Source of the DNA: Bacillales bacterium
GTDB taxonomy: Bacteria; Bacillota_I; Bacilli_A; Izemoplasmatales; UBA1188
Assembly: GCA_020633845.1 (NCBI GenBank)
Contig: JACKCW010000003.1
Span: 11,661-75,660, forward strand
Reading direction: 5' to 3'
DNA: 64,000 nt
Below, one piece after another: positions 13,415-29,334 of this stretch. Within the stretch, counting starts at the first letter, position 1. Each line of letters begins with the position of its first letter. The translations under genes were made by a program, and so were the position numbers. The notes below the pieces were generated by a model, which saw nothing but the letters and a program-made list of their open reading frames with translations, searched no databases and had not been told where the DNA came from.

Positions 13415-14575
13415 ATGAAATTTATTTTTACAAGCGAAGCGGTGACCGAGGGTCACCCAGATAAGATTGCGGATCGGGTTGCGGACAGCATTCTCGATGC
13501 GATACTTAAAGAAGATAAGTTTGCGAGAGTTGCCTGCGAAGTTGTGACTTCAACCGGTCTTCTCTTTATCTTCGGACAAATTACCACCTCGGCTCATGTC
13601 GATTACAAAGACATAGCGAGGAACACCGTAAAAGAAATCGGTTATACCGAAGGCAACTACGGTTTTGATGCCGAAAGCATCAACATTCTTACGGCTATCG
13701 ACAAACAATCTCCAGATATCGCAATCGGGGTAGACTCGGCCGAAGGCAAGAGTTTAGGGGCAGGAGACCAAGGCATCATGTTTGGGTTTGCCACCAAAGA
13801 AACGGATATATACATGCCTCTTGGAGAAGTCTTAGCGCAAAAATTAGCTTTAAGACTGACTGAAGTAAGGAAAAAGGGAATCATCCCTTATTTACGTCCG
13901 GACGGAAAAACTCAGGTTTCGCTTGAATACGAAAACGGAAAGCCTAAAAGAATCGATACCGTGTTAGTCTCCGCTCAACATAACGAAGAAGTTAATATTG
14001 AAGATTTAAGAAAAGATATCAAAAATGAAGTTATTTTAGAAGTAATTCCCAAAGAATTACTTGATAATAATACCAAGTTTTTAATTAACCCAACGGGAAG
14101 ATTTGTGGTTGGCGGCCCCGCCGCCGATACCGGTCTTACCGGCCGAAAAAATATTGTCGATACCTATGGTGGTTATGCAAAAAACGGCGGCGGTTCCTTT
14201 AGCGGTAAAGACCCGACTAAAGTCGACAGAAGCGCCTCTTATATGCTTAGATACGTGGCTAAAAATATTGTCGCAAGTGGCTTAGCCGATAAATGCGAAA
14301 TCCAAATTTCTTATGCGATAGGAGTCTCAAAACCGGTTTCAATTGCGGTTGATACTTTTAATACATCTTTATTAACCGATGAAGAATTAGTTGATATTAT
14401 CCAAGAGAACTTTGACTTAACCCCGGAAGGAATTATTGATAAGTTAGATCTTAGAAGACCGGTCTATAAAGATGTAAGCTGTTACGGTCATTTTGGTAGA
14501 GACGATCTTGATCTTTCCTGGGAAAGACTTGATATGGTTGATAAACTAGCAAAATATAATAAAAAGAACTGCTAG
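13415..14575 (+). CDS. metK: S-adenosylmethionine synthetase
   Basis: [21 protein letters not shown] and [16 protein letters not shown] motifs. Confidence 0.97.
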
Positions 14576-18436: not shown

Positions 18437-19133
18437 TTTAAAGATATTTTAGATAGATAAATAATATTATCGGTTAAATCACTAATTTTCATTGTCTTTC
18501 CGTGACCGGGATATATAACAAGCGGTTTAAGTTCAATGATTTTTTGCCAAGATCTGATGTATGAAGAAAGATTTTCAATGACGAAAGATACCTTATGGAA
18601 TGATAAAGGAATGTTCATCGCCGCATCGCCTACAAACATTTTTTATCTGTAAGAAGAAGAGAAAGAGAGTCTTTTGTATGTCCGGTAGTTTCAATTATGT
18701 CTCCGCCAAGCATATCTTTTAATAATTCTTTATTTTGTTCAGTATAAGGGATAAACCGTTTATCATCGTCAATAGAAGGATATGATATTCTGGATTTATT
18801 CAGTTTTCCTAAGAAAGAGGATAAAAATCCTACATAAAAAGCTTTTTGATTTTGGCCGGTTTTCATTCTTTCTTTAGCTTCTAAAGATGATATAATTAAA
18901 GCTTTTTTATTTACTTCTAATAGTCTTTTTAAAAAACCGACATGATCGCTATGGGAATGGGTAATAAAAACATAATCTATCATTAATAAAGTAAAACCCG
19001 CTTTCTCCATCATCTTTTTAAAATGATCATAATCATTTTCATAGCCTGTATCAATCAGAATCATTTTATCATTGTGAAAGTAAACGTAATTATTAACGAA
19101 AGAAGTCCCAAAATTATAAATTATCTTTTCCAT
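18433..19133 (-). pseudogene. MBL-fold metallo-hydrolase, split by a -1 frameshift in a homopolymer
   Basis: ORFs 18630..19133 (contains HSHSDHVG) and 18433..18639 are the two halves of one MBL protein. They join if the T6 run at 18639-18644 (A6 on the coding strand) is one base longer: ...LTDKK-MFVGDAAM... Confidence 0.6.
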
Positions 19134-19433: not shown

Positions 19434-19811
19434 TTAGTTCTTAAGCGTATTAATAATTGATTCTATTTCGGTCGTGAGCCAAGTGTTTAGGTCTCCATAG
19501 GTGTCGCTTATATAAGTTTTAACATCCTCACTCATTTGTGTTAGAGCCGATTCTTTGGCTTTAGAAAGCGCCGTTTTCTGCGCTTCTTCATTAAACGTAC
19601 CGCTTGTCTTAAGACTCTCGACATAGGTTTGAAAAACCGACTTTACTGCGGCAGTAACTATCTCGGTTGCTGTAGACAAAAGTTTCGCCTCTTCACTGTC
19701 TTTTATTTTAGAATTAATAAGTTTAACCAGTTTGGTTCCCGCGATAGATATTAGCGGTAAAACCACCGCCGTCACAACTACGCTGATTATATTAAGTAGA
19801 ATCTCGTTCAT
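19434..19811 (-). CDS. LL-H family phage-type holin
   Basis: GGAGG RBS and one N-terminal TM. The charged C-terminus has the pattern QTYVESLK..G.F.EEAQK.A...K......M.....Y....YGDL, which I recognise as the Holin_LLH family. Confidence 0.75.
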   Translation of the reverse strand: MNEILLNIISVVVTAVVLPLISIAGTKLVKLINSKIKDSEEAKLLSTATEIVTAAVKSVFQTYVESLKTSGTFNEEAQKTALSKAKESALTQMSEDVKTYISDTYGDLNTWLTTEIESIINTLKN

Positions 19812-20115
19812 TTACACTTCCTCCTAAATTTAAATGAATATTTTGATTTTTTATATGATCATCGATTTTCTGTTCGGCTTTTATCAGTCTTGTCAGAAGA
19901 TCGTCATATTTCTCTTCAAGCTTTTCAAGCGTTTTTTCTATCCTTTCAATGCTGGATTTGATATATCCGATATCGCTTATCAGCACTCCTTCATTTTTTC
20001 CTTCCTGTTTATGGTCCTCTTTCTTAGTTCTTTTAAAAGCCAGAAAGGCAAAAAGAATGCTGGACGCGGTTCCAAAAATGCTGATGATTGAAAGAATGAT
20101 TGTTATATAGTCCAT
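19792..20115 (-). CDS. small N-terminal-TM plus coiled-coil membrane protein (BhlA/UviB-like holin-type architecture)
   Basis: The start at 20115 (MDYITIILS...) has a GGAG RBS, while the upstream Met in the ORF track lacks one. A single TM is followed by a heptad-rich helix. Overlaps the LLH holin gene by 20 nt. Confidence 0.55.
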   Translation of the reverse strand: MDYITIILSIISIFGTASSILFAFLAFKRTKKEDHKQEGKNEGVLISDIGYIKSSIERIEKTLEKLEEKYDDLLTRLIKAEQKIDDHIKNQNIHLNLGGSVNERDST

Positions 20116-20134: not shown

Positions 20135-20166
20135 ATATAAAGAGAGGCAAACATGAAGAAAAACAA
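20135..20166 (-). promoter_or_regulatory. shared module motif, copy 1 (upstream of holin operon): TTGTTTTT-N13-TCTCTTTATAT
   Basis: The reverse complement of 20135-20166 reads TTGTTTTTcttcatgtttgccTCTCTTTATAT. It ends 19 nt before the ATG at 20115. Confidence 0.5.
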
Positions 20167-20239
20167 CCAGAAAGCTTTTAATTTGTTTTCCTATTTGCCC
20201 CAAGACAGTGATAAAGAAAGAATAATTGCCCCTAAAAAA

Positions 20240-20271
20240 TTGTTTTTCCACGCCAAGGCTTCTCCTTATAT
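20240..20271 (+). promoter_or_regulatory. shared module motif, copy 2 (upstream of sigma factor gene): TTGTTTTT-N13-TCTCCTTATAT
   Basis: TTGTTTTTccacgccaaggctTCTCCTTATAT. It ends 15 nt before the ATG at 20287. Confidence 0.5.
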
Positions 20272-20286
20272 GAGAGGAGAACATTT

Positions 20287-20829
20287 ATGGATAATAATTA
20301 TAAAAGGTATTATTCTATCTTAAAAAACATTGCGAGGGGGTACGGAAAAGAATACGAAGACGATTTGAGACAAGACCTCTATCTTTATCTTGAAAAACTT
20401 CTGCAAGACAAAAACACCAAGAAAGCAGATAAACCGTATGCTTATATCAAAACCGCTCTTATAAATAAGGCCAAGCACCTTTTTGCGTGCGAAAAACATA
20501 TTAGAGACAAAACCATTTCTCTTGATTCAAAAAACGTGATCGATGTTCCTATTCTAGATCTTATAGCCGACATGAAGGGCTATGAAGAAGATTTAATACT
20601 CGAGGAAGTTAAAATATATTTTTATAACAACATAAAAGAAATAATGAACGAATCTTTAACCAAAAAAGAAGAAGATGTCTTTATGCTGGTTTTCTTTGAA
20701 GAAAAACCGCAAAAAGAAATTAAAGATAAACAAAACGTTTCACAACAAACTATCTCAGAAACATACAGAAGAGCCTGTCGAAAACTGAAAGATGTATTTC
20801 AGAAAATGTATGACGATTGGCCCGATTAA
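20287..20829 (+). CDS. small sigma-70 family factor (ECF/group-5, TcdR/UviA-like)
   Basis: 180 aa. Region 2-like EDDLRQDLYLYL...YIKTALINKAKHLF and region 4 HTH LTKKEEDVFMLVFFEEKPQKEIKDKQNVSQQTISETYRRACRKLK. Size, charge and layout resemble TcdR as I remember it. Confidence 0.7.
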   Translation: MDNNYKRYYSILKNIARGYGKEYEDDLRQDLYLYLEKLLQDKNTKKADKPYAYIKTALINKAKHLFACEKHIRDKTISLDSKNVIDVPILDLIADMKGYEEDLILEEVKIYFYNNIKEIMNESLTKKEEDVFMLVFFEEKPQKEIKDKQNVSQQTISETYRRACRKLKDVFQKMYDDWPD

Positions 20830-20852
20830 TGTATGTTTCTTTTTTGTTTAGG

Positions 20853-20883
20853 TTGTTTTTTCTTGATTTCCATCTCTTATATA
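20853..20883 (+). promoter_or_regulatory. shared module motif, copy 3 (upstream of NTase-A/NTase-B/rhs operon): TTGTTTTT-N12-TCTCTTATATA
   Basis: TTGTTTTTtcttgatttccaTCTCTTATATA. The TTATAT part ends 14 nt before the ATG at 20897. Confidence 0.45.
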
Positions 20884-20896
20884 ACGGAGGGTGAAA

Positions 20897-21757
20897 ATGT
20901 TAGACAATCTTAAAGCCACCGATTTTAATCCGAAAATTGAATTCAAAATGCTTAGTTTTTTAGATCTGAGTTCGGCTACAAAGTTAACGTATAAAGTAAA
21001 TAGAAAAATATTTGAAGGCAAAAAAACACCAAAGGCAATTGGAGAATTTATTTTTTATTGTTCATTTACTGTTTACCAAAAACTGAAAAACGAAAAACTT
21101 TCTTTAGATTTATTTAAAGAGTGCGCCTATGTTTATGGAGCGGTCTTTAATGAGAATAAAATAAATAATTTCTTGTTATGGTATGAAAGCATATCAGCCT
21201 TGCACCTATATTTAAGAATAGCCAAAACTCTTAAATATATAGTGAAGGAAAGGACCTTTTCAGATAAATCAACAGAAATGGCAATTCTTATTACGAATTC
21301 TTTTTTGTACAAAGCACACCACTTAGTCATTATTTATAAATGCCCTAACATCATCTATTTAGTCGGGGCAATCAAAAATGGTATAAGCGATGAATCACTC
21401 TTGAAATGCCTTGATATATTTAGCGAACTTCCGCCTCAACTAAATAATAAATACGAATTAGTTGATAAAAATACTATCATTTTGCTTCTTAAAGCCAATA
21501 AAGAAAAAATATATTCTCTAGGAATAAAAAAGCTATGGCTTTTCGGTTCTTTTGTTAACGAAGAACAGAACGAATATAGTGATGTTGATTTATATGCTTT
21601 AACCACCGAAGACGCCATCGACTCAAAAGAAGAGATATTAGTTGAACTTAAAAAAATTGTTAAAAGGCCAGTCGATTTTCATATGAATGATGATAAAACA
21701 CACTTTAACGAAAATATTTTAAAAGAAATGGAGTTGATCTTAGATGCAGATAAATAA
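20897..21757 (+). CDS. two-domain protein: helical N-terminal (degenerate Fic/Doc-like?) domain plus C-terminal MNT-type nucleotidyltransferase
   Basis: ATG at 20897 lies behind a GGAGGG RBS. The C-terminal Pol-beta NTase signature is LWLFGSFVNEEQNEYSDVDLYAL (GS at 21545-21550, DVD at 21581-21589). Confidence 0.7.
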   Translation: MLDNLKATDFNPKIEFKMLSFLDLSSATKLTYKVNRKIFEGKKTPKAIGEFIFYCSFTVYQKLKNEKLSLDLFKECAYVYGAVFNENKINNFLLWYESISALHLYLRIAKTLKYIVKERTFSDKSTEMAILITNSFLYKAHHLVIIYKCPNIIYLVGAIKNGISDESLLKCLDIFSELPPQLNNKYELVDKNTIILLLKANKEKIYSLGIKKLWLFGSFVNEEQNEYSDVDLYALTTEDAIDSKEEILVELKKIVKRPVDFHMNDDKTHFNENILKEMELILDADK

Positions 21758-22604
21758 CAGAATCAATATAAAACTTTTTTATCGTTTTATCGAATTTACT
21801 TCAAAGCTTTTAGGCACGGGGTTAACCCACGAAAAGATAAAACTCCTAGCGCTTGACATAGATAAAGCGGAATCGCTTGAAGAGATAAACCTCAAGCGAT
21901 TCTCAAGCGCCCATCTTTATCTTTTAAACAGCGTTTCCCAGAGCTTTACCAAAGATATACTAGATACATCTTATTTTATTCTTTCGGGAGAAAAACTTGA
22001 TGATGAAGTATCCGAAGGAATTTTAAATAAATATTATATGAACCTGGATGATGCAGCACACTATTTATCGAGCCTAATCCATTTCGCAGTTTTGGATAGT
22101 GTGAGCTTCAGAAAGGTTGAATTCGCTTTTTTGCTTTCAAACTATGTAATGCTTAAAAAAGAAACAAATCCGATTATCATCTATGACTGTACGAAAGACA
22201 AGTACAACAAAGCAATTGAAGATAATGACATAGACGAACTCGGACTCGTATTCTTTGAAGCCGAACAAGTGGAAAAGCCCAAAGAAAGCGACGTTTTCAT
22301 ATCTAAAGAACAAATATTCTCTTTAATTAAAGAAAACAGACCAAAAATCAAAGATTACTATAACGTTAAGAAATTATATTTATACGGTTCTTACGCCAAA
22401 GAAAAAACAACGGGATACAGTGATCTCGATTTTTTGGTTGTTTATAAAGATAAAATTCTAAACACAGAAAAAACCATGGCAACCATGCTCCTCAGAGAAT
22501 ATCTTGATTCTTTATTTCATGTTAAGACAGATATAATCGATTTTACACACGCCTTAGAAAAGCTTGATATCGGCGAAATGGAAAACACAATAACACTAAT
22601 ATAA
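21744..22604 (+). CDS. paralogue of the preceding gene: degenerate Fic/Doc-like N-terminal domain plus C-terminal MNT-type nucleotidyltransferase
   Basis: Overlaps the upstream gene by 14 nt. NTase motif LYLYGSYAKEKTTGYSDLDFLVV. The N-terminal HYLSSLIHFAVLDSVSFRKVEFAFLLSNYVMLKKETNPIIIY follows the Fic core helix pattern but has no HPFxxGNGR. Confidence 0.7.
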   Translation: MQINNRINIKLFYRFIEFTSKLLGTGLTHEKIKLLALDIDKAESLEEINLKRFSSAHLYLLNSVSQSFTKDILDTSYFILSGEKLDDEVSEGILNKYYMNLDDAAHYLSSLIHFAVLDSVSFRKVEFAFLLSNYVMLKKETNPIIIYDCTKDKYNKAIEDNDIDELGLVFFEAEQVEKPKESDVFISKEQIFSLIKENRPKIKDYYNVKKLYLYGSYAKEKTTGYSDLDFLVVYKDKILNTEKTMATMLLREYLDSLFHVKTDIIDFTHALEKLDIGEMENTITLI

Positions 22605-22617
22605 AAGGAGATTTAAA

Positions 22618-25600
22618 ATGATTCAAAAAATTACAAACAACACAATAAACCCGGGAATCACGATAGTTGATTCCAAAATTTATGGCACAAACGGAACTCT
22701 ATATTCTTATTCTTCTAGCGGCCACTATTATTCTGGTTTTAACAGCACAAAATTAATGTTTATAAAATTAACTTTCAACATTTTGTCGTCATCAGATATT
22801 CAGAGATCATACTTAAATTTAAAATATTCTGGAGTACACAATTCTACAATGCTTAGAATCTATGACACCAACCAAACTGCCACGACTTCGGCGGCGCTGT
22901 TATCTGTTATTTCCAATTACTCAAACACAGCTTATTTTGATGATGCGGTCATTATTGATGAGAGTACTATGACTGATGGATACGGACGTGCATCTTTTGA
23001 TATAACAAACATTATCAGAAGCAAAGCGACAAGCACCACTTTCAGCGTTGTGCTCATGATAGCCTCAGACTATTCAAGTGCAACTGAATTAAAATTATAT
23101 GATCCAGTTTATGATACTGATGATGTTTGTGTTACAACTTTGTCCGCGATTGACGGATTATCATCAAATTATCAATACCAGGAATCCGATGCCGGATTTG
23201 CCGGAAAAACATACGTAAATCTTGCAACGGGAAAAATGCTTTTAAATTTTGCCGGGCCATCTAGCAAAGATACAAAAATGCCTTTAGCATTTGGTTTTAC
23301 CTATAATTCAAATAGATACCAACTATCATATGATTTGGGCAACGGGGCCAAGTCCTTTTTCAATTATAAAATATATCAAAGCGGATCGTCTTTAATCGTT
23401 CAAGATCCATCTGGTTATGACAATGTTTTTACACCTATTGATGATGAAGAGGCCGAAAATCTTGATATTGATACCTCAAATCAATCTTGTGACTACTATT
23501 ATTCATACGAGACGGGATCGCACATTGCGTATAATTCATCTACTTCTTTGTTGAGGTTATACGATAAAAACGAAAACTTGATGAGTTTTTATTATAATAC
23601 GATCGTTACAAGACTTATGAGCATTTCAAATAAGCTTGGCAAAACCACAGATTATAATTGGGACATACTAAACGGCAATCCACCAGAATCAATTGAAAAC
23701 TCTGTTGGAGAGATAATGTCTTTGGTTTATGACTCTTCAGACAGAGTTGTTACAGCAACATGTAACTCTATTATTTTAACTTTCGCTTATGACGCGTCTG
23801 GTCGCTTATCAAGTGTGATAGAAAACAACGGGTCCACTAATTTGTATACTGCAACTTACGGATATGATACAAACGGATATATGAACGACATTCACGACTC
23901 TTATTCAGATACCGGAATCAGTTTTACATATACCGGAGGAAAAGTGACCAGAATAGACTATTATAAAAACTCAACAACTGAATCTGCCGGATATAAAGTA
24001 ATTGCTTACAACGATAATTTTACTAGTGTAGCCAATGAAAAAGGAGAGATTAATTATTACTACTTCAATGAAAACGGCAAATGTATTATGGTTATGGATG
24101 ACAAGGGAAAAACTATTTCATTTAACTATGATGAAATAAAAAATGGTTTATCTAGTAATCTTTCCGGTCAGTCTCACGTTCAACATAATTCTAGAAATTT
24201 GATTGAAAATAATAGTTTTGAAAGCAATGATGATTTATTTGGAGATGACTCTTGTTGGACTATTTCAGGAGCGTCTTCTACAACTGCGGAAACAGTTGAT
24301 GATGGAGTATATGGGCAAAAATCTTTAAAAGTATCTCACGCTGCCGGAGAAACGATAACAATTTCTCAAAATTTGCATAATGTCTATGAGGGAACATACA
24401 TTTTAAAAGGATTTTTAAAACGTTATACACAAGCAAGTGCGATTACTTCAAGCAATATAAAAATCAAATTAATCGGAAGCTACGACATAACTGAAAGCGT
24501 TCCTGTGACCACAACGCAAAGCGATGGCACAACAGTCACAACATATGTTAATCAAACAAATCATTGTGACAATTTATCAGTAGAAAATGCATCTTTTTCC
24601 GGAGATTCTAATTGGGTTGCTTTTAGTCTTCCTGCTTTAAGTTTTCCTACAGCATCATTTAATAATACCTTAAATATTACAATCCAATTAATCGGAAACA
24701 CATATGATGTTTATTTTGACGAACTACAACTTAACAGCAAAGATATGAGCGCTAGATATAATTATGTTGAAAATGGATATATGGAATATGGAAGCGTGCT
24801 GCCTACTGGATTCGCAATGAATAGCGTTGGCCTTTTGGATTCTATTTATACTCTTACTTCATCAGATGAACATGCATCTATTCTGGGCAAAAAAGTAATG
24901 CGGCTTTATGAAACATGTGCCTATACTCAAACATCTGGAACTATCAATTCAAAAAAATTCTATCGAGAGATTCCGATAAAAGGAATTGAAGGAGAAGAAC
25001 TAGTATTTAGCATCTTTGCCAAGGCTTTAGCTACAGAAAATAATATTTTCAGAGCCTATATAATTTTTAATTATGTTGGCCAAAGTGCCGTATCAACCTA
25101 TAGGTTCGATTTTATCAAAGACTTTTCTAACTGGCAAATGCTTACAAAAAGCATAACAGCCGAGCACTCATACGATGGAATTATTCTAGGAGTGGAGTAT
25201 GCCGGAAAGTCAAACGCATATATTGATGCCTTCCAGCTTTATAAAGATAACTATGGAAAGTACTATTCATATGATAAAAAAGGCAACCTTATTAACACAG
25301 TGGATGGCGCATCTTCCTCGAGCTTTTCTTACAACGATCTAAATGAAATTGAAAGCGCCTCTTTGAGCGACGGCAGTTACTATAGATATGAATATGATGA
25401 CGATAGACAAATTACCGGCGTATATGATTCAAACGGCAATCATCTAGTGATGGAGTACGACGATAATGGAAATAGAACCAGCGTTCAATTATTTGATGTC
25501 AATGGCAAAGCACTAAATGTGTCATCAGCCTATAATTCCTACAGCAAAGCACTTAGTTATACTAATGAATTAAATGAAACTACAACATACAGCTTTGATG

Positions 25601-28600
25601 CAAAAGGATTACTTCAAACTACTACAGATCCAACTGGGCAAGTCGAAAGAAATTCTTATGATAGTTATGATAGGCTCATTTGTCTCGATTCATTTCACGG
25701 AGGAAACGCACCAACAAATGCAGAAAACCAATACAGCTATAACAGCCTTAATCAATTGGCCTCAATTTCAAGTAACAACGGCACGACGTATGGATTTGTT
25801 TATGATGACTTTGGAAGAATAACAGAGATAAACATAGATGGAGCAAGATACCAATCAAAAGAATACAATTTAAGTCACGGTACTCCGTCTGTGAATACCG
25901 GATTATTAACTATGAAAAGATATGGGACATCAGGAGACTACTATGCTTTTACTTATGACGATAATGATAGAATAGCTACTGTTTTACTAAACGGAAACCA
26001 AATTGCAGCCTATGAATATGATGAAAACGGACAAATATCCAAATCAACCGACTCTGTAAATGATAATACTAGAAATTTCTCCTATGATTTAAAGGGAAAT
26101 TTGAAAAAATCAACCGACTCTGACGGCAACTCTATTTCTTATTTTTACGACAATCTTGGTGCTGTTCAAAAAACCATCTATGAAATAAACGAAAAAAATA
26201 GAACATTTGATTACCAGTATACATATGAAGAAAATGAATACTCAAAAGAAGGATATTTTGAAAGACTGAGTACTGTTTATGGAGACGAGATAATAAAAGG
26301 AAATATGCTCGGAAAAGGAACATACGGAGCTACACCCGATGAAGATATCCCTAGTTCTATGGTTTATACAGACGACGTTATTAAAATGTCTGTTTATAAG
26401 TTTTCAACAGCAGATAACAAAATAGAATATGAACTATCTAAATTTAATAATGATAGGGATGGGATATATTATAACTCCACTCAGTTTAACTACAATGTCT
26501 GGAAATCAAACTTTGCAAACGAAAAGACTTTCTATGCCTGGATAAAACCGATGGGCAGTTTTTCTGAGGAATGCATTTTCCAGTTTGCCGATATTACTAA
26601 TCAAACGACATATTGCAGTTTGGTAGTCAATTCAACTGGGCATTTAGGACTAAAACCATATAATTCAAGTAGTATGGCCTTAACCTCGAGCGCCTTAACA
26701 ATAGGAGTTTATAACCTTGTTGGAGTCCAGTTTATCAAATCTTCTTCTTCAATTACCGCGAGATTAATTGTAAACGGAAATGTAACAGAATTTTCAACAA
26801 CCATTGACCCTAGTAATTTTGGATACTTAAAAGTGGCCGATCAAAGGGAATATAATTACTCAAGTTTACTCCCTATGTATATTTATATAGCATTTATGTC
26901 TGCCGGCTCTTATCCATATACAGCCGATGACTTTCAAGCAATTTATAAAGCCGGCGCGCCTTATCTTTCTAGCATAATAAACAGAGAAAGTAAAACGAGT
27001 GGAGTACTGTATTATAATAAAACACCATATGAAAGCTTTGATATTATAACGCTTAATGGGAGCTTCGTGTCCAGCAAGGGCTTAGAGCCGAAAACTATTG
27101 TTGAAACCGATAATTCATATAAGGTTGACAAGGCAAAACTATTCAAATACGACCTTACTCTTAAAAAACATATATATGGAAGTTATAGTAGTGTTGTGAA
27201 TTTAACTCCTGGTAACAATTCTAAATTGGTATATGATTTAGGGCTAGGTGCATCAGGCACTATATCAATTAGATATCGCTTTGACGCATCAGCAAGTCAA
27301 GATACTTATCCTAAAATGTTGTTCTCTTTCATTAACGGCAGTACAACACATTTATATGCCGAATATCAAAGTAGCACTGGCTTTAAAATATACGATAATG
27401 CAGGTCATTCTACTGTTATTCCTTTTGATACAGGAGTTTGGCATACCTTATCATTATCATATAACTCAAGCGGAACTCTACTTTATCAAGACTTAACAAG
27501 TATATCCAACTCACTAAGCATAAATTTAACCGGTTGTGAAGCGTATATAGGCTCCGGAAGTTCAGACAACACTCAAATGGATGGAGACATGGAAATGCTT
27601 GTATTTGGAAATTCTAAAGCTACGGCAACACAACTTCAAGCATTCTACAGCGGAAGAAAATCATACTCTGTGTTAAAAACACACGACTTACTAGATCGTA
27701 TTACCAAAAAAGAGATAATAAAAAATTCTGCAACTGCTTCTCATACTACCACAACATATTATACTCATGGGGATACTACAACCGCAATTCATCCACTTGT
27801 TCATAGTGAGGAGACTACAACTAAAGAGCAAAATGTAAGCACAACAGAAGTAACAATTTACTCATATGATTCTTTAAATAATGTTACGTCAAAACTAGTA
27901 ACAGACGCAAACGGAGTCGGAAAAGAAAGAGTCGATTACTCATACGATGAGATTGGCAGATTATCTGAAGAGGATACATACACTTATGTGAGCGGCACCG
28001 GTCTCGTCTTAACTTATAAATTTAAGTACACATATGATCAAAACGGAAATATTACATATAGAAAAAAATACAGTTCCACAGACAGTCTTCTTGCAACAAA
28101 ATCCTATGTATATGATCAAACAATAAAAGATAGATTAGCAAGCGTCACCGATGGAAATACCACCACCACTATTACATATGGTACCGGCTTTGCATTTAAC
28201 CCGACATATATAGGATCTACCCCACTAGCATGGAGCGGAAGAAGATTAACCGGATATGGCTCAAACCTATTTGTTTACAACGAAGATGGAATAAGAATTA
28301 GAAAAACATCAGTTGGATTTGCAACTCATACTTATGATTTAGAAGGAAAAAGGGTAGTCGGCGAAACAATAGATAGTCCATCAATTCACTTTGATTATAA
28401 CTATGATGAAGAAGGGACACTTATTGGACTTACTTATAATGGAATTGAATACTTCTATTTAAGAGATATAACTGGAAATATTGTCAAAATAGTTGATGAA
28501 TCTGGAAATACAGTAGTAAAATATAGTTATGATGCATGGGGCACAGTAACAAAAACAAATATTGCAAACACCACTGCATCAGGTATCCTCTATACATACA

Positions 28601-29325
28601 ATCCATATTTATACAAAGGCTATTATTACGACAGAGAAACTAATTTGTATTACTGCAACAGCAGATACTACAGTCCTTCTTTATGCAGATGGATATCGGC
28701 TGACGCAATAGACAATCTTGATCAATCAACGATTGATGGAATAAATCTATACGCGTATTGTGGTAATAACCCAGTAATGGGATATGATCCAGAAGGAAAA
28801 TGGAATTGGAAAAAATTCGCCATTGCACTTGCTGTATCTATTGTTATAGTGGCGGTTACTGTGGCTATAGTTGTTGCAACCACCGCAACTGGTGGACTTG
28901 CAATGCTTATTATTGGGGCTGCAGTTACCACTGGTGTAGTTTTGTCTTACGCAGCAGGCGCAGAAAAAACAGTGGTCATAGATTTAAGTTGTTATTTATG
29001 GGATGTTGGCGGAGGAAATTCTCTGGTCATTGATTTTAAAAATGATTCATGCGAACTATACTCTCATGGTGGGTTTGTGATGGGAGATAGTCCCATGGCT
29101 ATTTCTTTCTCTGTCGGACTTGTTGATAATTATAAAGGAAAACGCGGATACGAAGGACCATTTATGAAGATTGGAGGAGGATATAAAATTGGAATTGAAC
29201 ACGCTTTTGATCCGACTAAACCATATGATGAAACCGTTAGAGCTACAACAGTAACTTTTTCAAATTCTTTTGGAGTATACGCAGGATTTGATTATTATAC
29301 TAGTTTATTTTATTTTAATTTCTAG
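22618..29325 (+). CDS. Rhs/YD-repeat polymorphic toxin (2235 aa) with a variable C-terminal toxin domain
   Basis: Many YD repeats (YDASGRL, YGYDTNGY, YEYDDDRQ, YDDNGN, YSYDEIGRL, YTYDQNGN). Rhs core end YNPYLYKGYYYDRETNLYYCNSRYYSPSLCRWISADA...NLYAYCGNNPVMGYDPEGK (DPEG at 28786-28797). No signal peptide, LXG, WXG or PAAR-like N-terminus is visible. Confidence 0.9.
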   Translation: MIQKITNNTINPGITIVDSKIYGTNGTLYSYSSSGHYYSGFNSTKLMFIKLTFNILSSSDIQRSYLNLKYSGVHNSTMLRIYDTNQTATTSAALLSVISNYSNTAYFDDAVIIDESTMTDGYGRASFDITNIIRSKATSTTFSVVLMIASDYSSATELKLYDPVYDTDDVCVTTLSAIDGLSSNYQYQESDAGFAGKTYVNLATGKMLLNFAGPSSKDTKMPLAFGFTYNSNRYQLSYDLGNGAKSFFNYKIYQSGSSLIVQDPSGYDNVFTPIDDEEAENLDIDTSNQSCDYYYSYETGSHIAYNSSTSLLRLYDKNENLMSFYYNTIVTRLMSISNKLGKTTDYNWDILNGNPPESIENSVGEIMSLVYDSSDRVVTATCNSIILTFAYDASGRLSSVIENNGSTNLYTATYGYDTNGYMNDIHDSYSDTGISFTYTGGKVTRIDYYKNSTTESAGYKVIAYNDNFTSVANEKGEINYYYFNENGKCIMVMDDKGKTISFNYDEIKNGLSSNLSGQSHVQHNSRNLIENNSFESNDDLFGDDSCWTISGASSTTAETVDDGVYGQKSLKVSHAAGETITISQNLHNVYEGTYILKGFLKRYTQASAITSSNIKIKLIGSYDITESVPVTTTQSDGTTVTTYVNQTNHCDNLSVENASFSGDSNWVAFSLPALSFPTASFNNTLNITIQLIGNTYDVYFDELQLNSKDMSARYNYVENGYMEYGSVLPTGFAMNSVGLLDSIYTLTSSDEHASILGKKVMRLYETCAYTQTSGTINSKKFYREIPIKGIEGEELVFSIFAKALATENNIFRAYIIFNYVGQSAVSTYRFDFIKDFSNWQMLTKSITAEHSYDGIILGVEYAGKSNAYIDAFQLYKDNYGKYYSYDKKGNLINTVDGASSSSFSYNDLNEIESASLSDGSYYRYEYDDDRQITGVYDSNGNHLVMEYDDNGNRTSVQLFDVNGKALNVSSAYNSYSKALSYTNELNETTTYSFDAKGLLQTTTDPTGQVERNSYDSYDRLICLDSFHGGNAPTNAENQYSYNSLNQLASISSNNGTTYGFVYDDFGRITEINIDGARYQSKEYNLSHGTPSVNTGLLTMKRYGTSGDYYAFTYDDNDRIATVLLNGNQIAAYEYDENGQISKSTDSVNDNTRNFSYDLKGNLKKSTDSDGNSISYFYDNLGAVQKTIYEINEKNRTFDYQYTYEENEYSKEGYFERLSTVYGDEIIKGNMLGKGTYGATPDEDIPSSMVYTDDVIKMSVYKFSTADNKIEYELSKFNNDRDGIYYNSTQFNYNVWKSNFANEKTFYAWIKPMGSFSEECIFQFADITNQTTYCSLVVNSTGHLGLKPYNSSSMALTSSALTIGVYNLVGVQFIKSSSSITARLIVNGNVTEFSTTIDPSNFGYLKVADQREYNYSSLLPMYIYIAFMSAGSYPYTADDFQAIYKAGAPYLSSIINRESKTSGVLYYNKTPYESFDIITLNGSFVSSKGLEPKTIVETDNSYKVDKAKLFKYDLTLKKHIYGSYSSVVNLTPGNNSKLVYDLGLGASGTISIRYRFDASASQDTYPKMLFSFINGSTTHLYAEYQSSTGFKIYDNAGHSTVIPFDTGVWHTLSLSYNSSGTLLYQDLTSISNSLSINLTGCEAYIGSGSSDNTQMDGDMEMLVFGNSKATATQLQAFYSGRKSYSVLKTHDLLDRITKKEIIKNSATASHTTTTYYTHGDTTTAIHPLVHSEETTTKEQNVSTTEVTIYSYDSLNNVTSKLVTDANGVGKERVDYSYDEIGRLSEEDTYTYVSGTGLVLTYKFKYTYDQNGNITYRKKYSSTDSLLATKSYVYDQTIKDRLASVTDGNTTTTITYGTGFAFNPTYIGSTPLAWSGRRLTGYGSNLFVYNEDGIRIRKTSVGFATHTYDLEGKRVVGETIDSPSIHFDYNYDEEGTLIGLTYNGIEYFYLRDITGNIVKIVDESGNTVVKYSYDAWGTVTKTNIANTTASGILYTYNPYLYKGYYYDRETNLYYCNSRYYSPSLCRWISADAIDNLDQSTIDGINLYAYCGNNPVMGYDPEGKWNWKKFAIALAVSIVIVAVTVAIVVATTATGGLAMLIIGAAVTTGVVLSYAAGAEKTVVIDLSCYLWDVGGGNSLVIDFKNDSCELYSHGGFVMGDSPMAISFSVGLVDNYKGKRGYEGPFMKIGGGYKIGIEHAFDPTKPYDETVRATTVTFSNSFGVYAGFDYYTSLFYFNF
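28499..28803 (+). repeat. rhs core 3' homology block (recombination substrate), master copy
   Basis: Nucleotide-level similarity to 32348-32626 over the full block and to 30984-31186 over its 3' two-thirds. Similarity ends at the DPxG codons. Confidence 0.8.
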
Positions 29326-29334
29326 GGAGGATAT

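Follow-up and report, generated by a model that had tools for sequence, protein, structure and literature searches.

A two-block promoter motif proposed for a TcdR-like sigma factor in a holin and Rhs toxin module of an uncultured Bacillota bacterium

A module of three transcription units and three copies of one motif

We analysed a 64-kb stretch of DNA (the window) from a 'Bacillales bacterium' metagenome-assembled genome (MAG), which contains a module of three transcription units, each preceded by a copy of the same two-block motif. One unit is a sigma-70 family gene (20287–20829, plus strand) that encodes 180 amino acids (aa) and matches Sigma70_r4 (1e-9) and TIGR02937 (3e-14); the protein is made up of a sigma-2 domain and a sigma-4 domain, with a weak region 2 and a region 4.2 that reads VSQQTISETYRRACRKLK. 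The second is a divergent holin operon on the minus strand (19434–20115), in which a 107-aa gene (20115–19792) overlaps the gene of a 125-aa holin (19811–19434; phrog_13712, 7.7e-28). The 107-aa protein has an N-terminal transmembrane segment and a coiled coil and matches phrog_1863/1009. The third is a toxin operon on the plus strand (20897–29796) with two nucleotidyltransferase (NTase) genes identified by Pfam, NTase-A (20897–21757) and NTase-B (21744–22604), followed by a gene for an RHS-repeat protein of 2,235 aa (22618–29325; Pfam and translation) and a 153-aa open reading frame (ORF; 29335–29796) whose putative role in immunity is assigned from position only. The NTases are tandem paralogues of 286 aa each, with a C-terminal MntA/Pol-beta-type nucleotidyltransferase domain and about 190 N-terminal aa that have no assigned domain. 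The Rhs protein lacks a signal peptide at its N terminus, and its C-terminal domain, after DPEGKW (28900–29325), is predicted to be transmembrane-rich, which suggests a membrane-active toxin. Matches to Pfam, NCBIfam and PHROG families agree with the gene calls that the initial annotation had made for this module.

Reading of the sequence and pattern searches on both strands placed the three blocks where they had originally been reported: TTGTTTTTcttcatgtttgccTCTCTTTATAT ahead of the holin operon (copy 1; minus strand, 20166–20135), TTGTTTTTccacgccaaggctTCTCCTTATAT ahead of the sigma gene (copy 2; plus strand, 20240–20271) and TTGTTTTTtcttgatttccaTCTCTTATATA ahead of the NTase-A/NTase-B/Rhs operon (copy 3; plus strand, 20853–20883), the last having one base fewer within CTC..TTA than the other two. 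All three sites fall inside 750 bp. The strict pattern recovers copies 1 and 2, with 0.00 matches expected from 100 shuffles, and TTGTTTTT-N15-19-TTATAT occurs on the two strands of the 64 kb at exactly these three sites; GTTTTT-N15-19-TTATAT adds no site beyond them on either strand. Each half alone is common in the window (TTGTTTTT occurs 21 times and TTATAT 159 times), so it is the pairing of the two halves that is special. The motif was not found upstream of the flanking housekeeping genes or of the downstream cassettes in pattern and matrix scans of the window, as the initial annotation had noted for backbone genes and orphan cassettes.

The distance from the end of the block to the ATG is 19 nt in copy 1 (ATG at 20115–20113, minus strand), 15 nt in copy 2 (ATG at 20287) and 13 nt in copy 3 (ATG at 20897). 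The range of 14–19 nt given at first was therefore nearly exact, and the ribosome-binding sites named with it stand: every gap contains a strong Shine–Dalgarno (SD) sequence, GAGAGGAG in copies 1 and 2 and GGAGGG in copy 3. A repeat finder returned only short chance repeats besides the -35 blocks and a TAWTTGCCCC pair. This direct repeat (20192–20201 and 20223–20232, 31 nt apart) and the stretch AATTTGTTTTCCTATTTGCCCCA (20180–20202) lie between the divergent promoters. In the related locus L003 the stretch is unchanged, and in L004 almost so; L003 has not kept the second repeat. The AATTTGTTTTCCTATTTGCCCCA/TAWTTGCCCC stretch may be a candidate binding site for whatever first induces the sigma factor.

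Relatives of the sigma factor and recurrence of the motif

To place the sigma factor, we searched for relatives, fetched the contigs that encode them, and also scanned genome and metagenome collections. A word-indexed search returned two relatives, P0001 with 97% and P0002 with 73% identity, and an exhaustive phmmer search against 1.8e9 representatives returned 15 proteins at E<=1e-3; the sigma factor is a near-orphan. Credible relatives are 164–197 aa in length, share 24–33% identity and have the region 4.2 signature S-Q-Q-[YT]-[IV]-S. In the alignment of the window sigma family (A3), the signature is S-Q-Q-x-[IV]-S, with one member reading S-I-Q. No relatives were found in viral contigs scanned with the sigma alignment or in a phage collection searched by tblastn; the sole phage match, L025, was set aside as a generic sigma similar to the extracytoplasmic function (ECF) type, without the motif. 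The gene for P0002 has, at 1225–1302 of L003, an extra base in a poly-A run. The reading frame is thereby shifted immediately ahead of region 4.2, with SQQTISETYRRACRKLK still encoded in the frame downstream; this could reflect a pseudogene, a phase switch at a slippery run or an assembly error.

The window locus itself is also present in two Logan metagenome contigs. The two-block core occurs upstream of sigma genes with 24–33% identity in six other lineages, and often upstream of their neighbours too. The refined consensus is (G)GTTGTWT-N~14-[C/G]TCYTTA(T), with the G of GTTGT 22–23 nt before the first C. At the distant sigma genes the sites read GTTGT-N17-18-[C/G]TCTTTA, and 14–22 nt separate the end of CTCTTTA from the start codon; by our estimate, a site of this kind would fall within 60 nt of a start codon by chance with a probability of ~3e-5 per locus. 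Counting the window, where the copy lies 15 nt before the ATG, a sigma gene is preceded by the motif there and in 6 of 7 other lineages.

Comparison of close relatives separates the conserved from the variable positions. At the sigma promoter of L003 and L004, neither block has changed but 4 of the 13 spacer positions have; the holin promoter there is identical to copy 1 throughout. The L003 counterpart of copy 3 reads GTTGTATTTT-N13-CTCCTTTCTCA; GTTGT and CTCCTT are thus kept, and TTATAT is lost. Among more distant loci, a Tissierellaceae MAG (L013, equivalent to L008/L016) has three copies, before its sigma gene, a divergent operon and an NTase gene. The divergent operon encodes a 95-aa transmembrane-coil protein, which matches phrog_1009 as does the 107-aa protein of the window, and a 155-aa weakly holin-like protein; the third copy lies ahead of a 287-aa NTase followed by an RHS-like protein of more than 1,700 aa. 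The layout of this module, sigma, holin and NTase plus Rhs, is the same as that of the window. Three copies, with GTCTTTA, are present in a Mollicutes MAG (L009/L015), two on either side of the sigma gene in L017, two around a partial sigma gene in Paenibacillus antibioticophila (L014, 48% GC), one before the sigma gene in L006/L007 and one before the sigma gene in L018 (47% GC).

We also built a two-block matrix from 13 foreign sites only and applied it to the 127,900 positions of the window. Copy 1 ranked first (26 bits), copy 3 fifth and copy 2 seventh. The second-best match (13541–13573, plus strand, 14 bits, GTTGTGACTT..CTCTTTATC) falls within the coding sequence of metK and is most probably due to chance. 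Where the motif stands 80–95 nt from the gene, an SD sequence and an ATG still come after it at the usual distance and open a mini-ORF, of 10 codons in L013 (~6340–6290, minus strand; MRNLYFKKPP) and of 8 codons in L015 (~5880–5850 and ~4740–4710, minus strand; MIKKIEYG). The promoter, SD sequence and ATG seem to travel together as a unit.

These comparisons bear on whether the sites could be housekeeping promoters read by sigma-A, or a chance AT-rich likeness to them. TTGTTT as a -35 and TTATAT as a -10 each match the sigma-A hexamers at 4 of 6 positions, and the spacer between them is 18 nt in copy 3. However, it is 20 nt in copies 1 and 2, which departs from the TTGACA-N16-18-TATAAT geometry, and a sigma-A consensus scan does not report the three sites; nor did it flag any sigma-A-type promoter on the relevant strands of the two intergenic regions. 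G-T-T-G-T and C-T-C, the bases that the lineages have in common, are not those that define a sigma-A promoter, TTATAT is the part that L003 has dispensed with at its third copy, the shuffles give an expectation of zero chance matches to the strict pattern, and the motif is kept in genomes of 47–48% GC. We reject the sigma-A reading because of the spacing and of which bases are conserved, and regard it as extremely improbable.

Comparison with TcdR and other small sigma factors

The group 5 sigma factors of toxigenic clostridia comprise TcdR, UviA, BotR, TetR and TcsR (PMC4885068, PMC4031146, PMC10223161). Hallmarks of the TcdR family are the -35 element TTTACA, a variable -10 element and the region 4.2 residues SRQ, proposed as a family marker (PMC4031146), together with autoregulation and a sigma gene that lies immediately upstream of the toxin genes with holin-like genes near (PMC4885068). 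In the tcdA promoter (PtcdA; ATGTTTACA-N17-CTCCTTATC in Table S1 of PMC10223161), mutagenesis defined a -10 element of 6 bp, CTCCTT, that allows other bases at positions 1 and 4 (both C) and requires the T at position 2 (T-12), with Y74, F63 and I71 proposed to form the pocket for this T (PMC10223161).

The -10 element of the window family agrees with this definition. PtcdA can be written as GTTTACA-N17-CTCCTTAT, and copy 2 carries an identical CTCCTTAT. The -10 elements of the window are CTCTTT, CTCCTT and CTCTTA, those of the foreign copies are [C/G]TCTTT, and across the family T is invariant at position 2, and position 4 alternates between C and T and position 1 between C and G. For comparison we used six TcdR-family sequences from plasmids: TcdR of a C. 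difficile plasmid, TcsR of P. sordellii, UviA-like genes of C. perfringens, C. tetani and C. argentinense, and one sequence from Clostridiaceae 14S0207. Promoters of this family (L019, L023 and L024) read TTTACA-N15-18-(C)TCTTTA, and that of the bcn-like gene of pSM101A reads ATTTACA-N16-CTCTTTATATAG. The supplement text for PtcdB (...CAACGCTTTTATTC) could not be aligned with confidence and was not used. On the C. perfringens plasmid pSM101A (L019, position 2331, minus strand), a TTTACA-N16-ATCTTT site is divergent from the uviA-like gene and faces an N-acetylmuramoyl-L-alanine amidase gene, so a lysis-related unit in divergent orientation, comparable to the window's holin operon, may belong to UviA-type modules as well.

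The -35 element, in contrast, is (G)GTTGTWT in the 3 window copies and the 13 foreign copies, and not TTTACA. Sites of the GTTGT type number 0 in 24.9 kb of TcdR-family loci and 22 in loci of the SQQ family, 18 of them at sigma modules; sites of the TTTACA type number 9 in the TcdR-family loci, as against 6 scattered ones, at background level, in the 144 kb of loci of the SQQ family. Each of the two -35 types goes cleanly with one sigma family. The -10 block and the spacing match those of TcdR promoters, and only the -35 differs. The proteins differ at the corresponding place: S159, R160, Q161 and N164 are invariant in the six TcdR-family sequences, and in the recognition helix S-R-Q-x-[VI]-N is replaced by S-Q-Q-x-[IV]-S, that is, R160 by Q or I and N164 by S, so that the window sigma lacks the SRQ marker. 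Elsewhere the families align nearly over their full length (hhalign of A3 against the TcdR-family alignment A2, 99.07%, E 1.5e-18, with the TcdR family as the sole comparator), and Y74 and N81 of TcdR, which act in -10 recognition and unwinding, align with the invariant Y53 and N60 of the window sigma family. This pattern fits the retention of region 2 with the -10 element while region 4.2 and the -35 element co-varied.

The likeness extends to the locus. Both in the window and in the TcdR group, a small two-domain sigma gene lies upstream of, and co-directional with, a large toxin operon, a holin-type gene is near, a promoter copy stands ahead of the sigma gene, the -10 is CTCYTT(A) and the distance from -35 to -10 is equal within 1 nt. 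The cargo differs: an RHS-repeat polymorphic toxin with two nucleotidyltransferases here, and a large clostridial glucosylating toxin, a neurotoxin or BCN5 in the TcdR group. The hosts of the TcdR group are Clostridium, whereas the window derives from a Bacillales MAG and its relatives from Tissierellaceae, Mollicutes-like Bacilli and Paenibacillus. Leaders are predicted to be ~10–16 nt in the window, as against ~25 to more than 150 nt in the TcdR group.

Other known sigma factors resemble the window protein less closely. It shares with ECF (group 4) sigmas the sigma-2 plus sigma-4 architecture, the TIGR02937 superfamily, a -35/-10 geometry in which a base near -12 is flipped, and the frequent autoregulation of that group; however, the ECF signatures AAC (-35) and CGT (-10) are absent, no anti-sigma gene is evident beside the sigma gene, and none of the specific ECF subfamily models reaches its cut-off for the window sigma. 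Xpf of PBSX, a 'positive control sigma-like factor' and one of the phage-type late activators that neighbour lysis cassettes, is likewise a small sigma-like protein beside a holin cassette, and we found a weak match to NF005385 (E 0.004) and matches to phage sigma PHROGs (1e-8). These scores are all far below the family cut-offs, and the module has no phage structural genes.

Because both TTTACA and SRQ fail, we place the window sigma in a sister lineage and not in the TcdR family proper. We propose that this sparsely populated sister lineage of the TcdR/UviA group has kept its -10 specificity and re-specified its -35, and the difference in -35 predicts that its members would not be interchangeable with TcdR, UviA, BotR or TetR.

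Proposed regulation of the module and its significance

We consider it likely that the 180-aa sigma factor (gene at 20287–20829) has the three blocks as its cognate promoters and that these together drive the module, which is best described as a putative TcdR-like self-activating sigma regulon, with a re-specified -35, over the holin and NTase-NTase-Rhs operons. The initial annotation had already suggested promoters read by the adjacent sigma factor, and this idea draws strong support from the recurrence of both blocks and their spacing in six lineages, from the variable spacer and from the identity of the -10 to that of TcdR. The assignment of the elements has been revised. The -35/-10 layout holds, yet the -10 is CTCYTT with T at -12, and TTATAT, to which that role was first given, lies largely downstream; the -35-like element also holds, with GTTGT as its conserved core and with GTTGTWT and SQQ in place of the canonical TTTACA and SRQ of TcdR. 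So delimited, copy 1 (20135–20168, minus strand) would consist of the -35 GGTTGTTTTT (GTTGT at 20167–20163), a 13-nt spacer, T, the -10 CTCTTT (20144–20139) and ATAT. Copy 2 (20239–20271, plus strand), the proposed autoregulatory promoter, would consist of the -35 ATTGTTTTT, a 13-nt spacer, T, the -10 CTCCTT (20262–20267) and ATAT, and copy 3 (20851–20883, plus strand) of the -35 GGTTGTTTTT (GTTGT at 20852–20856), a spacer, the -10 variant CTCTTA (20874–20879) and TATA.

In the mechanism that we propose, RNA polymerase bearing this sigma factor would contact (G)GTTGTWT as the -35 through region 4.2 and CTCYTT as an ECF/TcdR-type -10 through region 2, with the T at position 2 (about -12) flipped into a pocket and a register of 22–23 bp between the G of GTTGT and the first C. 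Transcription would start about 13 nt past the first C, at the SD sequence. Copy 2 would drive the sigma gene and so provide positive feedback, copy 1 the divergent operon of the transmembrane/coiled-coil protein and the holin, and copy 3 the NTase-NTase-Rhs-immunity operon. With one copy per unit the whole module would be switched on together, as are the pathogenicity locus (PaLoc) and uviAB-bcn under TcdR and UviA. With the T at position 2 set as -12 and the geometry taken from PMC10223161, the predicted starts are ~20131 (minus strand, ±2), ~20275 (plus strand) and ~20887 (plus strand), and the leaders ~16, ~12 and ~10 nt.

Several points weigh against this interpretation. Leaders of ~10–16 nt that put the SD sequence at the extreme 5' end are unusual, and the caveat about very short leaders that was raised at the outset stands; either the start sites differ slightly from those predicted or translation tolerates such leaders. 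The short distance from motif to start codon is conserved in the family, which makes it a real, if unusual, property and no argument against a promoter. Copy 3 has a one-base deletion in its -10 block (CTCTTA), copy 2 lacks the G of GTTGT, and the sigma genes of L010, L011 and L012 have no recognizable copy directly upstream, the sole copy being 4–5 kb away. The closeness to TcdR is argued from the -10 block, the locus architecture and weak tblastn matches to TcdR-like plasmid genes (E 0.03 and 3, not significant), and the promoter case, for a host that is an uncultured MAG, is built on sequence comparison. In addition, two TcdR-type promoters upstream of tcdR were inactive in a B. subtilis reporter (PMC10223161), so a motif before a sigma gene is no guarantee of autoregulation. 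The putative autoregulation, first suggested by analogy with TcdR, is supported at the level of sequence, by copy 2 and by the corresponding sites in 6 of 7 other lineages.

The CUCU or CUCC stretch, with the 3' part of the spacer, could instead act as an RNA element that pairs with the SD sequence, sequesters it and controls translation in place of, or in addition to, transcription. When leaders were folded in silico, a check that the initial annotation had proposed, 8 of the 11 copies gave a predicted hairpin between the CT stretch and the SD sequence, at z of -1.5 to -2.6, for example CCUCUCUU/GAGAGAGG in copy 1 and a helix of 16 bp in L006. Pairing is also slightly stronger between the two arms of one site than after an exchange of arms among lineages (-8.9 as against -7.7 kcal/mol; p = 0.02 by permutation). 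The swapped arms nevertheless still reach -7.7 kcal/mol, a mean cost of ~1.2 kcal/mol, and this small cost indicates that the pairing is largely the generic complementarity of CTCC/CTCT to GGAG/AGAG, since any CT-rich -10 is complementary to GGAGG; with so small an effect, we claim no structure despite the p value. No hairpin is predicted for window copy 3 (z +0.94) or for the holin copy of L013 (z +0.89), several other copies pair weakly with the SD sequence (-2.4 to -5.9 kcal/mol), and copies of L013 (NTase), L010, L014 and L015 lie 56–136 nt away from the start of the gene. There is no partner with which GTTGT, the invariant block, could pair, transcripts that began where the -10 predicts would lack the 5' arm of the hairpin, and Rfam covariance models returned only a plant microRNA model below threshold (25.9 bits against a gathering score of 171). 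The complementarity noticed between TCTC and the ribosome-binding site is thus real but mostly generic, is absent from copy 3 and leaves GTTGT unexplained. An RNA element as the main function is very unlikely, in our view, and a role of the hairpin in silencing read-through transcripts is possible.

A different regulator might bind the blocks as an operator, with transcription from another promoter. Inverted repeats of 6–7 bp surround TTATAT in copies 1 and 2 (CCTCTCT..AGAGAGG and TTCTCC..GGAGAA), and the conserved AATTTGTTTTCCTATTTGCCCCA between the divergent promoters could bind a regulator. Yet GTTGT and CTCTTTA do not form a repeat of one another, be it direct or inverted, and copy 3 and many of the foreign copies lack the inverted repeat at the DNA level; for these two reasons the operator reading fails. 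The spacing, the position relative to the gene and the match to a mutationally defined -10 fit a promoter, and the sigma gene is the only regulator gene common to the seven lineages. We therefore hold an operator to be very unlikely and retain the promoter interpretation.

Other features of the neighbourhood may be recorded here. The NTase pair lies directly upstream of the Rhs gene, and a 287-aa homologue occupies the same place in the Tissierellaceae module (L008, 3996–4859); the NTase–Rhs partnership is conserved, which poses the question of whether the NTases serve as chaperone, adaptor or modifier. The 107-aa protein of the holin operon was considered as a homologue of BhlA/UviB, the holin-like peptide that is the partner of UviA, and rejected, as hhalign gave a probability of 10% over 22 columns and the architecture alone is alike. 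Past the holin operon, after a gap of 300 nt, a 167-aa protein of the metallo-beta-lactamase fold (18630–19133, minus strand) has a Pfam match to Anti-Pycsar Apyc1 (PF23023); its gene has no motif ahead and is followed by a 68-aa ORF. Short ORFs downstream of the toxin operon (30968–33633) resemble the orphan cassettes of the initial annotation, and all lack the motif.

A bolder interpretation is that the module is the founding example of a sister lineage of the TcdR sigmas in non-clostridial Bacillota, with a rewired -35 and with a promoter that doubles as a safety device; taken as a whole, we think it unlikely. The rewiring would have turned TTTACA into GTTGTWT along with a change of SRQ..N to SQQ..S, the -10 being kept. 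The insertion sequences IS10 and IS50 inhibit read-through transcripts by fold-back. The window promoters would be alike if the CT-rich -10 arm hid the SD sequence solely where transcription had begun upstream of the dedicated promoter: the -10 and spacer would form the 5' arm of a hairpin in read-through transcripts, and translation would be confined to the transcripts that the cognate sigma starts inside the hairpin. If so, a lethal holin and a holin-released Rhs toxin would be insulated from leaky expression.

The motif gives a promoter code for a rare and uncharacterized lineage of small sigma factors, the regulons of which may be predicted from sequence alone. Compared with the TcdR family, with the same -10, a different -35 and two different residues in the recognition helix, the lineage would offer a natural specificity switch. 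The PaLoc-style design, in which a self-activating sigma factor is combined with a holin and a giant toxin without a signal peptide, appears to reach past the glucosylating toxins and neurotoxins of clostridia, and here it would control an Rhs polymorphic toxin in uncultured Bacillota. This organization suggests that Rhs toxins of Gram-positive bacteria may leave the cell by a holin-dependent route.

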